This document shows, in pieces, positions 7,585-64,000 of a stretch of 64,000 nt of DNA (positions are counted from its first letter, which is position 1; each line of letters begins with the position of its first letter). This stretch comes from an uncultured Solirubrobacteraceae bacterium (GTDB lineage: Bacteria > Actinomycetota > Thermoleophilia > Solirubrobacterales > Solirubrobacteraceae): contig CAWIRA010000005.1 of assembly GCA_963838405.1 (NCBI GenBank), positions 83,071-147,070 on the forward strand. The letters are read 5' to 3'. Position numbers and translations under genes: made by a program. Under the pieces are notes generated by a model. The model saw only the letters and a list, made by a program, of their open reading frames with translations, did not search any database and had not been told where the DNA came from.

Positions 7585-7636
7585 CGAAAATATTCAAACC
7601 GCGACATCCAGCACTTACGTGTGTTCAATGCCCCAT

Positions 7637-8302
7637 ATGAAACGAATATCTCTTGCCCTGATCGTCACCGCCGCGTTCGCGCTGGCGCTGCCGGCCCTCG
7701 CGCCCGCGACGCTCACCGAAGTCGGCGTCATCGGTGAAACCACGCCCGCGACCGCGCCGAGTTGTCCTGGCACCCCGTGTCTGGCGGTCAGCCGCACAAC
7801 AGGCTTTCAGGTCAAGGTCGCCACCGCCAACAATCTCGTCAGCGCACCGCGCGAAGGCACGATCGTCGCCTGGACGATCACGCTCGGCAACCCGAACCCC
7901 ACCCAGATCAAGTACTTCAACGCCAACGAGGGCGGCCCCTCCGAAGCCGGGATCGCGATCCTCGCTCCTCAGAGGAAGCCAAACCTGACCTACAAGCTGA
8001 TCGCCCAGAGCCCGCTGGTCAAACTGCAGCCGTACTTCGGCAAGACCGCGCAGTTCCCGCTCGAAACAACGATCCCGGTCAAGAAGGGCTACATCGTCGC
8101 GCTGACCGTGCCCTCGTGGGCGCCGGCGCTAGCACTCGGATTCGGCGAAAACACGTCGTGGCGCGCCAGCCGCCCCAAGGCCGGCTGCAAGAGCACCAGC
8201 TCCCAAACGACACAGACCGCGATCGGCAGCGCCGTCCAGTACTACTGCCTCTACCAGACCGCCCGCCTCACCTACAGCGCAACGCTGATCTCCACGCCGT
8301 AG
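7637..8302 (+). CDS. Secreted hypothetical protein
   Basis: Signal peptide MKRISLALIVTAAFALALPALAPA; strongly GC3-biased codons; four Cys. Confidence 0.75.
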   Translation: MKRISLALIVTAAFALALPALAPATLTEVGVIGETTPATAPSCPGTPCLAVSRTTGFQVKVATANNLVSAPREGTIVAWTITLGNPNPTQIKYFNANEGGPSEAGIAILAPQRKPNLTYKLIAQSPLVKLQPYFGKTAQFPLETTIPVKKGYIVALTVPSWAPALALGFGENTSWRASRPKAGCKSTSSQTTQTAIGSAVQYYCLYQTARLTYSATLISTP

Positions 8303-8324
8303 CTGCCTAGCTGTTTGCAGATGC

Positions 8325-8429
8325 CCTAGGCGTTCGCTGGGCAAGCAAGGCAAGGACGCAGGGAGCGCCGCGTGCTGCGCACGCAAGCGACTGAGGACGC
8401 AGCATTGCGCCGCCCAGCGGGCGCCTAGG
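8325..8429 (+). repeat. Structured dispersed element, copy A (~105 nt, long terminal stem)
   Basis: CCTAGGCGTTCGCTGGGC...GCCCAGCGGGCGCCTAGG terminal stem; core homologous to the reverse complement of 16766-16870. Confidence 0.8.
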
Positions 8430-8823
8430 GGGCGCTGGCGCCGCCGGTGGGGCTGGCCGGCGCCGTAGGTTCGCTGGCTTTGGATTCGGCTTCGCTCGAG
8501 GCCGGTTTTTCTGCAGCGGCGGCGCCGCCGGAGCTGCCTTCGGTGCTGGGTGCGCTCCCACCGGAGGATGATTCGCTGTTTTCGCTCGCGGGCGTTTCTC
8601 CGGAGGAGGTCGTGCTTTCGGTCGTCTTGGTGCTCTTGGTCGAGGTCGTGCCGGTCGAGGTCGTCTGCGCGGCGGCCGCCGCTTCGGCGCTCGTGTCCGT
8701 CGGCGGCGTCAGTTCAGGGGTGCTTTTGGGCACCGCGTCGGAGACGCTGGTGCCGCCGCACGCGGCCAACGCCAACCCACAGAGCAGCGCTGCGCATGCG
8801 GCGAGCGCTACGCGGGTCCTCAC
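8425..8823 (-). CDS. Ser/Thr/Ala-rich low-complexity lipoprotein
   Basis: GTG start overlapping upstream TGA; lipobox LAAC-GG; disordered S/T/E-rich body. Confidence 0.7.
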   Translation of the reverse strand: MRTRVALAACAALLCGLALAACGGTSVSDAVPKSTPELTPPTDTSAEAAAAAQTTSTGTTSTKSTKTTESTTSSGETPASENSESSSGGSAPSTEGSSGGAAAAEKPASSEAESKASEPTAPASPTGGASAP

Positions 8824-9080
8824 AGCGGTCCCATACGCCTGCCGCAGGTGGGGCACTCGTTGAGGTCCTTCTGCGAGTGCTGGTCGCACCACGGGCAGAA
8901 GCGCATGTTCTCCACCGCCCACGGCAGCCGCGAGCGCGACGGCGCCAGCGGCAGCACCTTGCCCACGATCTCGAGCGGCTCGCCCGACTCGCGGTCCAGG
9001 TAGATCTCCTCCGGCTCGGCCTCGATCAGCACTTCGCGGCCTGCGGAGCTTCGTAGTCGATAACGCTGTCTAGTGCTCAC
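8820..9080 (-). CDS. Small zinc-ribbon protein
   Basis: CPWC...CPTC; -10 TAAAGT 7 nt before GTG. Confidence 0.7.
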   Translation of the reverse strand: MSTRQRYRLRSSAGREVLIEAEPEEIYLDRESGEPLEIVGKVLPLAPSRSRLPWAVENMRFCPWCDQHSQKDLNECPTCGRRMGPL

Positions 9081-16299: not shown

Positions 16300-16713
16300 A
16301 TGCAAGTCCAGCAAGGCATGAGCGAGATGGTCCTCACAGTCGGTCCCAGCCACACGCTGCGCGAGGTCGCGAAGCTGATGGCGCAGCGGCGCGTGGGCGC
16401 GGCCGTGGTCATGGACCCGGACGGCCCTGGCCCGGGCATCATCACCGAGCGCGACATCCTCGTGGCGCTCGGCGCCGGCGAGGATCCGGACCACGAGCAG
16501 GTCATCGACCATCTGACGCGCGACGTCGTCTTCGCTGCGCCCGACTGGTCGCTGGAGGAGGCCGCGGCGGCGATGGTTCGCGGCGGCTTCCGTCACCTGA
16601 TCGTCCTCCAGCGCGGCGAGACCATCGGTGTGCTGTCCGTGCGCGACATCGTGCGCTGCTGGACCGACGACGGTGCGATCTGCTCGGTGCCCGCCAGGGT
16701 AGCCGTGGGGTGA
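16300..16713 (+). CDS. Stand-alone tandem CBS-domain protein
   Basis: GPGIITERDI, FRHLIV, GVLSVRDIV; RBS GGAG before ATG 16300. Confidence 0.9.
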   Translation: MQVQQGMSEMVLTVGPSHTLREVAKLMAQRRVGAAVVMDPDGPGPGIITERDILVALGAGEDPDHEQVIDHLTRDVVFAAPDWSLEEAAAAMVRGGFRHLIVLQRGETIGVLSVRDIVRCWTDDGAICSVPARVAVG

Positions 16714-16721
16714 ACGGGGGA

Positions 16722-16756
16722 GGTGGCAGGCCTGCTTTGGGGAGCAGGCTGCCACC
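16722..16756 (+). terminator. GC-rich hairpin after the CBS gene
   Basis: GGTGGCAG-G-CCTGCT/TTGGGG/AGCAGG-CTGCCACC, no U tract. Confidence 0.55.
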
Positions 16757-16765
16757 ACCACGGCC

Positions 16766-16870
16766 CCAGCGGACCGTCGACGCGGCGCGGACCGGTGTCC
16801 TCGGTCGCTCGCGTGCCTTCGCACGCCACGCTTCCTGCGTCCTTGGTCCGCTTGGTCGACGGCCCGCTGG
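16766..16870 (-). repeat. Structured dispersed element, copy B
   Basis: CCAGCGGACCGTCGAC...GTCGACGGCCCGCTGG terminal stem; core matches copy A at 40 of 45 non-loop positions. Confidence 0.8.
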
Positions 16871-16909
16871 TCGATGATTCGGCGGCCGAGCGGGGCGCGC
16901 GACCTGCGT

Positions 16910-38475: not shown

Positions 38476-38549
38476 CGGGGCGTAGCGAAGCCTGGTATCG
38501 CACCACATTTGGGGTGTGGGGATCGCCGGTTCAAATCCGGCCGCCCCGA
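38476..38549 (+). tRNA. tRNA-Pro (anticodon TGG), CCA not encoded
   Basis: CGGGGCG/CGCCCCG acceptor stem, CCACA-TTTGGGG-TGTGG anticodon arm, GGTTCAAATCC T arm. Confidence 0.96.
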
Positions 38550-63600: not shown

Positions 63601-63707
63601 GGATGCAACCACGTCGCCGATATCTGCCTGGTCTGCCGAGGCCTGGGCGGAGGCTTGCTCATGCGCCCAGAATAAACGCTGACGGTGCGGTTTAAGGTCC
63701 GGCTTGC

Positions 63708-64000
63708 TAGTGGTCGTGTCCGGAAGTGATGCGGCTCATGCGGCGAGGGTGAGTGGTTGAGGTTCGTGTCGGGTGATCTTCTCGATCACGTTGTCGAGCT
63801 TGGTGCGGGTGAGGGTCCATTGGAATGCTCGCGCGAGCGTGCGGTAGTGCTGTCCGAAATCCATCAGGTGCCCGGCGAGCTCGGGTAGCGTCGCGTAGTC
63901 GTTCGGTGTCAGGGCCTTGCGCTGCACGATCGAGAAGTAGATCTCGATCTGGTTCAGCCAGGAGGCGTGGACGGGGAGGTGAATCAGCCTCGCGTTTGGG
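63708..64000 (-). mobile_element. IS630-family insertion sequence, 3' end
   Basis: Transposase C-terminus then ...CACTTCCGGACACGACCACTAG ending in a TA-containing CTAG. Confidence 0.8.
63736..63999 (-). CDS. IS630-family transposase, C-terminal part
   Basis: HLPVHASWLNQIEIYFSIVQRK motif, FQWTLTR. Confidence 0.88.
   Translation of the reverse strand, partial: PNARLIHLPVHASWLNQIEIYFSIVQRKALTPNDYATLPELAGHLMDFGQHYRTLARAFQWTLTRTKLDNVIEKITRHEPQPLTLAA

Follow-up and report, generated by a model that had tools for sequence, protein, structure and literature searches.

Two structured stretches of a Solirubrobacteraceae genome as probable copies of a gene-end palindromic repeat of Thermoleophilia

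Two long hairpins and the family they represent

The stretch of an uncultured Solirubrobacteraceae genome that we analyzed (64,000 nt of contig CAWIRA010000005.1, here C5; this whole stretch is called the window) contains two similar non-coding elements, one at the end of a minus-strand open reading frame (ORF) at 8425-8922 and one on the plus strand behind a gene for a CBS-domain protein. A first-pass annotation, made from the letters alone, had described them as a structured element present twice, with covarying stems that would mark a selected RNA or single-stranded DNA fold. Both elements lie where it had placed them, and with their full stems they extend over 8324-8430 (copy 1, minus strand) and 16766-16870 (copy 2, plus strand). 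We consider it probable that both are copies of a non-coding, non-autonomous, palindromic dispersed repeat of about 110 nt that is characteristic of Thermoleophilia. It would be of the same kind as the repetitive extragenic palindromic (REP)/BIME, ERIC or Correia repeats, with an architecture of its own. The element is a genomic repeat like REP sequences or miniature inverted-repeat transposable elements (MITEs) with unusual features; it is neither a dedicated regulatory RNA nor a novel non-coding RNA with two copies.

A covariance model was built from 13 paralogues (A2 and R1). The search with it found 24 full copies in the 3.8-Mb genome (E-values from 1e-21 to 3e-5), spread over four of its contigs, and at least four truncated copies besides; only two of the full copies are in the window, and the count of two given at first is therefore wrong for the genome. 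Looser patterns and an nhmmer profile point to about 25-30 places. A strict 48-50-nt pattern of the core matched four times in the genome and never in the reversed control, which together with the covariance-model E-values places the likeness of the two copies far above chance. Among 24 congeners, the same model finds between 0 and 58 copies per genome, and it matches less strongly elsewhere in the order, in other families. The family is present in 67 of the 201 sampled Thermoleophilia genomes (45 of 87 genera); outside the class, matches came from a single additional family of the phylum. Scanning public genomes for an exact pattern yielded at least 120 matching stretches. Among the matches listed, all were metagenome-assembled genomes labelled Solirubrobacterales, Solirubrobacteraceae, Thermoleophilaceae, Thermoleophilia or just Actinomycetes or Actinomycetota.

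The first-pass annotation could not assign the element to a named family, and we could not either. At the gathering threshold, an Rfam scan of the window returned only a tRNA gene (38476-38549, 61.5 bits), and E-value scans of both copies returned only miRNA-like noise (E of about 0.2 or higher). The repeat family is apparently undescribed: full-text literature searches by taxon, concept and core sequence found no description of it.

Each copy is one long, non-coding hairpin of about 110 nt. From the outside to the inside, it consists of an outer stem of 14-22 bp, a conserved junction (cGG-C-GC facing GC-TTg), an inner stem of 6-7 bp in which a T·C mismatch recurs, and a near-invariant, asymmetric core of about 50 nt in which a 6-bp hairpin separates two direct CTGCGTCCT repeats. 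All parts are described in the orientation that gives GCGTCCTC... as the core sequence. The two unpaired strands of the core, CTGCGTCCTCGGTCGCT on the 5' side and CACGCTCCCTGCGTCCTTG on the 3' side, share CTGCGTCCT and are mutually non-complementary; the hairpin between them is GCGTGC or GTGTGC with the matching partner. Genome-wide, the CTGCGTCCT motif is not enriched outside the elements. The loop region had been called invariant and purine-rich. It is indeed invariant, but in the usual sense orientation it is pyrimidine-rich; only the complement of the strand that is usually transcribed is rich in purines. The sense strand as a whole contains 37% C, 31% G, 20% T and 11% A. One, two or three sense frames are open in 25, 56 and 24 copies, respectively, as in shuffled sequences, and no frame is favoured.

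Some variants have an additional hairpin, either nested within the central loop or in place of GGTCGCTC, and in others the right half is different. There is also a second small palindromic module, ACCGATCG(A/T)AGATCGATGGGATCTCCGATCGG, which is nested in the element at unrelated loci: twice in this genome, G000 (C6:839653 and C4:158120), at the atpG site of G021 (L194) and at the sufB site of G007 (L183). This module may be a separate tiny mobile hairpin or the marker of a sub-family.

Copy 1 (model match 8322-8432, equal to C5:91392-91502, E = 1.4e-20) reads on the minus strand. The 5' arm of its outer stem, CCCTAGGCGCCCGCTGGGC, lies at 8412-8430 and includes the TAG stop (8425-8427) of the ORF 8425-8922; a gene end homologous to the terminus of this ORF is also seen in relatives. 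The 3' arm, GCCCAGCGAACGCCTAGGG, lies at 8324-8342; the convergent ORF 7619-8302 has its stop (8300-8302) at a distance of 22 nt. Further inwards, GGCGC (8407-8411) overlaps the inner-stem 5' arm GCAATGC (8402-8408), and on the other side GCTTG (8342-8346) accompanies the partner arm GCCTTGC (8345-8351). The conserved core (8352-8401), whose columns are near-invariant across 85 copies from other genomes, is made up of TGCGTCCTCAGTCGCT (8386-8401), the hairpin GCGTGC-gca-GCACGC (8370-8384) and GGCGCTCCCTGCGTCCTT (8352-8369). It contains two direct (C)TGCGTCCT repeats, and T8385 pairs as G·U with G8369, extending the core hairpin.

Copy 2 (model match 16762-16874, equal to C5:99832-99944, E = 5.8e-19) reads on the plus strand, with outer-stem arms at 16766-16781 and 16855-16870. 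Its GGCGC (16784-16788) and inner-stem 5' arm GCGGACC (16787-16793) precede the core (16794-16844), which comprises GGTGTCCTCGGTCGCTC (16794-16810), the hairpin GCGTGC-cttc-GCACGC (16811-16826) and CACGCTTCCTGCGTCCTT (16827-16844); the partner arm GGTCCGC (16845-16851) and GCTTG (16850-16854) follow. Between copy 2 and the stop of the CBS-domain gene (16711-16713) there is a separate plus-strand hairpin, GGTGGCAGGCCTGC-N8-GCAGGCTGCCACC (16722-16756), outside the repeat. It starts 8 nt past the stop and is kept in the relatives G018, G044 and G001, all of which are without the repeat at this place. It is probably the CBS-domain gene's own terminator.

Reading and aligning both stretches bears out the shared features that had been reported. 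The two copies have in common the core GTCCTC(A/G)GTCGCT(T/C)GCGTGC-loop-GCACGC-NN-CGCT(C/T)CCTGCGTCCTTG, with GGCGC 8 nt on its 5' side and GCTT(G) 4-5 nt on its 3' side. The paired flanks also differ in sequence and keep pairing, as had been claimed, both in the inner stems given above and in the outer stems, which are unrelated in sequence and measure 19 bp in copy 1 and 16 bp in copy 2.

We counted covariation on an alignment (A3) of 85 copies from about 75 other genomes. In all, 92.6% of the cells pair, compared with 70.5% in shuffles, and none of 500 shuffles reached the observed value. Double changes occur in 27 of the 37 stem pairs, and when the partner is slid by 1-3 columns, pairing falls to 27-44%. 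The GG opposite TT at the junction is conserved as sequence without covariation and may not be a true pair. Covariation of the helices that enclose an invariant loop region is therefore real.

Gene ends, turnover and the origin of the outer stem

In about 17 of the 24 copies in this genome, the 5' arm includes, among its first bases, the stop codon of an upstream gene with the same orientation. Fourteen copies are in sense between tandem genes, none is in antisense there, eight are between convergent genes (among them copy 1, whose class was assigned by hand from flank homology) and two between divergent genes. The corresponding numbers among the 85 foreign copies are 22, 4, 25 and 2. Pooled, tandem-gene sites thus hold 36 sense and 4 antisense copies, and the C/U-rich strand is the mRNA sense strand. 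In 41 of 47 foreign cases, the upstream stop falls within the model, by 2-19 nt, and the distance from stop to GGCGC peaks at 11-14 nt. The stops at the elements are TGA in 31 cases (55%), TAG in 22 (39%) and TAA in 3 (5%), much as in the genome (60%, 33% and 7%). Because orientation does not follow GC skew (15 to 9, no replication signal), it is tied to the direction of the genes and not to replication. The neighbouring genes themselves are unrelated and include atpG, nusG, sufB, a thiolase gene, NfeD, the CBS-domain gene and tRNA-Arg. The hairpin is not followed by a U-tract: of the 12 nt past the 3' arm, 20% are T, and a T-run occurs in 3% of the copies. The element is thus not an intrinsic (Rho-independent) terminator, although a GC-rich hairpin is present.

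Orthologous sites differ strongly between relatives. The copy-1 site is empty in G007, where the stops of the two convergent genes share a single CTAG, and in several other relatives 2-45 nt separate the stops. In G044 the site holds a full element in the opposite orientation, bracketed CTAG...CTAG, and in G015 it holds the 5' half only. At the sufB site, orthologous copies are found in G000, G018, G001, G044 and G007. Their outer and inner stems are related, with compensated differences (for instance, GAGGCGCG/CCCGCCTC versus GACGCGCG/CGCGCGTC), and their interiors differ, being canonical, a CGATCG-type module or another module. The same site has an inverted half in G015 and only a plain hairpin in G021 and G014. 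The hairpin of G021, at a sufB-dipZ-like junction (L186), has a 14-bp stem with one arm spanning the sufB stop and the other encoding RAPLD, the initial residues of the DipZ-like redoxin downstream, and could be a translational-coupling or occlusion structure.

At the thiolase site, the copies of G000 and G018 differ in one double change (T-A to C-G) and in indels of the interior, and G044 and G012 are empty. The atpG, NfeD and nusG sites are empty in most relatives. For copy 2, no precise empty site was found, the intergenic sequence of the relatives being too diverged; G044 may carry a remnant there. Tandem amplification also occurs, with nine units of 94 nt, three of 110 nt and two of 93 nt in the respective arrays. 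The array of nine, at L009 (G022:C2, about 1501-2280), is orthologous to a single copy at C5:501078 here; its 94-nt unit consists of the core, the 3' arm and a 14-nt linker, and the 5' arm is present in the first unit only. Truncated copies always retain the 5' half up to GGTCGC(TCGC), and often directly abut the stop or start of the next gene. Four of them are in G000 (C6:555526, C6:1180616, C6:1149891 and C6:1980813) and two in G015, and no copy reduced to its 3' half was seen among the truncated copies of these two genomes. Sites that are empty, filled, flipped, halved or amplified, together with inner stems and interior modules specific to sub-families that recur at unrelated loci, show that the family spreads and turns over.

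Part of the outer stem can come from the neighbouring gene. At atpG, the 5' arm is GGT CTG GCG TGA TCGCTGAGC and the 3' arm carries CCAGACC, the complement of the last codons; these G-L-A-stop codons are homologous to G-L-S-stop in relatives without the element. In two genomes of another Solirubrobacterales family (L029 1442-1515 and L031 1439-1512), the 5' arm begins inside a tRNA-Arg(CCT) gene, with its T stem and 3' acceptor strand, and the complement is in the 3' arm. The hairpin of the element would compete there with the acceptor stem in the primary transcript. Among the 60 foreign copies with a clear upstream ORF, pairing extends upstream of the stop in 47 (by at least 4 nt in 27 and at least 7 nt in 16), and in 50 of the 60, two-thirds or more of the stop codon is paired. 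What members of a sub-family have in common is the inner 7-9 bp of the outer stem (for instance, CTGCAAAC/GTTTTCG, CCGCTGAGC, CGTATGCC and CCTGACC) and not its outer part, and at L098 and L088 members of different sub-families occupy the same site, between GTCTAG and CTAGAC. The heritable unit thus approximates the inner 90 nt, with outermost pairs that are locus-specific. There are two routes to such a stem: insertion into hairpins that already existed at gene ends, or templated synthesis from the gene end, by which the palindrome is created or lengthened.

DNA-level pairing and competing explanations

The covariation had been taken as the signature of a selected fold; as a mark of a selected RNA fold, this does not hold. 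The 15 variable pairs of the outer stem (1212 cells) contain 29 cells of G·T type and 48 of A·C type. As G·T is not commoner than A·C, G·U pairs are not favoured, contrary to the expectation for a selected sense RNA. With RNA parameters, the mean fold energy is -62.7 kcal/mol for the antisense and -59.0 kcal/mol for the sense strand, so that the antisense folds better by 3.7 kcal/mol on average, and it is the stabler strand in 79 of 105 copies; DNA folding parameters give the same direction. We infer that the pairing of the stems is kept at the DNA level and not by selection on the sense RNA fold.

A selected structured RNA would be either a cis-regulatory element of 3'-untranslated regions or a family of small RNAs whose C/U-rich loops pair with Shine-Dalgarno-like sequences, and its copies would be functional modules and not selfish ones. 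The massive covariation, the invariant unpaired C/U-rich strands, the position always just past an ORF and the sense bias at tandem genes, which is independent of replication, would all suit such an RNA. However, its variable stems should then show a G·U excess and its sense strand should be the better folder. The lack of an Rfam match, the unrelated neighbour genes, the presence and absence, flips, halves and tandem arrays between sister species, and the range of copy numbers among congeners also speak against it, and we regard it as unlikely. Of the three candidates offered by the first-pass annotation (a new non-coding RNA motif, a REP-like or a MITE-like element), a dispersed repeat of the REP- or MITE-like kind is thus upheld and the dedicated RNA motif is not. 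A more specific RNA-level role would be that of a portable Rho-loading or terminator module, in which two C-rich, G-poor single strands flank a hairpin behind the stop and would recruit Rho once translation has ended, an arrangement likened to the rutA-boxB-rutB layout of lambda tR1. The C-rich sense strand with its invariant, YC-rich unpaired strands would fit, as would the sense orientation, the stop anchoring, the enrichment at convergent pairs and the missing U-tract. Yet copies sit inside obligatory operons (atpG-atpD), where strong termination would be harmful, and the C-rich strands are enclosed by very stable stems; we think this explanation very unlikely.

At the DNA level, the element could be an ordinary IS630/Tc1-type MITE that inserts at the TA in CTAG, thereby restoring a TAG stop, and is mobilized in trans by the resident IS630-family transposases. 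TAG-type copies are bracketed CTAG...CTAG (in G044 and G000 at the copy-1 site), the shared site of L098 and L088 has the corresponding form, two resident IS630-family insertion sequences with 4-5 identical copies each are all flanked by CTAG, and copy-rich genomes often have many DDE_3 genes. Against this, 55% of the stops are TGA, with an inverted TGA...TCA arrangement that contains neither TA nor a direct repeat. A transposase-specific terminal repeat is excluded by outer stems that vary between copies, and the outer stem can be native gene sequence. The element ends are unlike the resident IS630 ends, GTGTCTCGCGCC and GTGGACGTGTCC, and six congeners with 19-36 copies have no DDE_3 match. 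An origin of this type seems improbable to us. A mobile unit consisting of the inner 90 nt or so only, which would land in the loop of pre-existing gene-end hairpins and leave target DNA as the outer stem, is doubtful, though it has several observations on its side. The sufB hairpin of G021, CTAGAGGCGCGCTC-N6-GAGAGCGCCTCTAG, has a stem resembling the outer stem of the filled sites; at atpG, the place of the G000 outer stem is taken in G018 by a weak GGGCCTC/GAGACCC hairpin; sub-families share only the inner part of the outer stem; and hairpin modules are nested inside the element's own central loop. But stop-codon hairpins with a stem of at least 8 bp are not enriched in this genome (1.4%, compared with 1.3% in shuffles), which argues against simple loop-seeking insertion, since a loop-seeker should then not be anchored at stops. 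Moreover, the 3' arm of the G021 sufB hairpin encodes the N-terminus of the next gene, and in the filled genomes that coding stretch lies further downstream. The hairpins of G021 and G018 keep this model alive. Finally, REP or REPIN sequences moved by a RAYT (Y1 transposase), or recombination sites like the attC of integrons, share with our element the form of a hairpin repeat at gene ends that is multi-copy and extragenic, and, for attC, the start at an ORF stop, the sense orientation and a structure conserved above the sequence of the stem. We consider both extremely unlikely, as a RAYT (PF01797) had no match in this genome or in 29 of 30 congeners, with positive control genomes, there is no conserved GTAG head, RYYYAAC/GTTRRRY boxes are missing from the ends, and the copies are scattered at housekeeping genes and not in cassette arrays.

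The IS630-family elements are of interest in themselves. The last part of the window (63706-64000, C5:146776 onward) is the start of a CTAG-flanked insertion sequence of 1.25 kb with a DDE_3 transposase of about 344 aa, of which the genome holds four near-identical copies. A second IS630-type element, of 1.14 kb with a 373-aa ORF, accounts for five DDE_3 matches in the genome, and the four that were aligned are near-identical. Both elements look recently active.

Several observations weigh against the dispersed repeat that we favour. Near-identical, and thus recent, copies are absent from this genome, so current mobility is not demonstrated, and we found no mobilising enzyme and no autonomous partner. 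No pair of 5' and 3' halves separated by kilobases was found that could be an autonomous element, but this is weak evidence because the 5' half-model is insensitive. No direct repeats of 3 bp or more flank the palindrome; a 2-bp flanking repeat was observed 12 times against 5 expected, a borderline excess, as up to 13 occur in shuffles. A function at the RNA level would be equally compatible with the strong sense bias and the invariant unpaired core. On the sense strand there are 58 pyrimidine-pyrimidine and 9 purine-purine mismatches, the only asymmetry that favours sense, which hints at a strand asymmetry. Copy 2 is 52 nt past the stop of the CBS-domain gene and touches no stop codon, because the hairpin at 16722-16756 intervenes. 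The gene calls come from our own simple GC3-based ORF picker and not from curated annotation.

Relation to known repeats and significance

The dispersed repeat belongs to a known kind, the gene-end palindromes resembling REP, ERIC or MITE sequences, and differs from them in three respects: a variable stem with an invariant core, anchoring in sense at stop codons, and the lack of a RAYT or a matching insertion sequence. Like MITEs in general, it is small and non-coding, with paired terminal stems and orthologous sites that are empty or filled. With the REP, BIME and REPIN sequences of Enterobacteria and Pseudomonas, it shares the dispersal of non-coding palindromes at 3' ends in tens of copies per genome, the stable transcript hairpins and the copy number that varies between relatives. 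REP sequences, however, are 20-40 nt long and conserve the sequence of their stem. A REP-type head and stem could not be recognized in our element, whose outer stem is nearly unique to each copy and whose heads are CTGA, CCTG, CTAG, GTAG and others.

ERIC (or IRU) and Correia (or NEMIS) hairpin MITEs are also imperfect palindromes (100-160 nt) that are co-transcribed with their neighbours, have TA-containing targets and form sub-families with internal indels. Their terminal inverted repeats are conserved, they duplicate TA and they follow no strong rule of orientation, whereas the element described here has a locus-specific terminal stem with the stop codon in it, is about 90% in sense and mostly lacks TA. 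The mycobacterial MIRU is likewise an actinobacterial intergenic repeat that is oriented with its flanking genes and touches their stop codons. MIRU, however, are direct tandem units with a short in-frame ORF that couples translation, and ours is a palindrome; an identity with MIRU was rejected because an in-frame ORF through the unit is not enriched over shuffles. The attC sites of integrons are imperfect palindromes at or next to an ORF stop, always in sense, which keep their structure while the stem varies and pair at the DNA level. Unlike them, our element has no R''/R' core sites, and its interior is invariant where the centre of attC is variable. The attC identity was rejected on the missing boxes and cassette arrays (intI itself was not searched). 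TRIT and other terminator palindromes at actinobacterial gene ends are GC-rich hairpins without a U-tail that often serve both convergent genes, but they are short and simple, and do not have the 50-nt asymmetric conserved core or the dynamics of insertion and deletion.

How the repeat might arise can be outlined from its anatomy. The 3' arm would be made to measure from the gene end by templated synthesis, through fold-back or template switching, either at insertion or later. The invariant core could be a sequence-specific handle for a putative trans-acting factor, which might be a mobilising enzyme or a host protein. Co-transcribed directly past the stop, a hairpin of -55 to -70 kcal/mol may be a 3'-end barrier or a processing site that serves the gene or is tolerated by it. 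The sense bias could stem from such a barrier role, from a polarity of insertion linked to transcription, or from selection against a purine-rich, Shine-Dalgarno-like strand in the mRNA. A bolder version, which we hold to be rather unlikely, is a new type of mobile DNA that is recognized by its structure: a putative enzyme would recognize the core, with the CTGCGTCCT repeats facing each other across the hairpin, and insert the element in sense at transcribed gene ends, and the outer stem would be an inverted copy of the last bases of the gene. This would explain the made-to-measure stems (the atpG codons and the 3' end of the tRNA), the missing direct repeats, the truncations that leave only the 5' half and the polarity with the gene. 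If true, it would mean an inverted duplication of the target, whereas all classical transposases produce a direct one.

For genome annotation, the repeat matters because it can mislead, giving false ORFs and false calls of riboswitches or small RNAs, and the covariance model from this analysis cleanly separates it from true regulatory RNAs. It also marks the 3' ends of housekeeping operons. This family turns round the logic that is usual among bacterial repeats, the stem being variable and the unpaired core invariant, and following it up could lead to a new factor that binds DNA or RNA hairpins or to a new mechanism of insertion. Thermoleophilia are abundant and barely cultured soil actinobacteria, and this repeat occupies many of the spacers at the ends of their genes.

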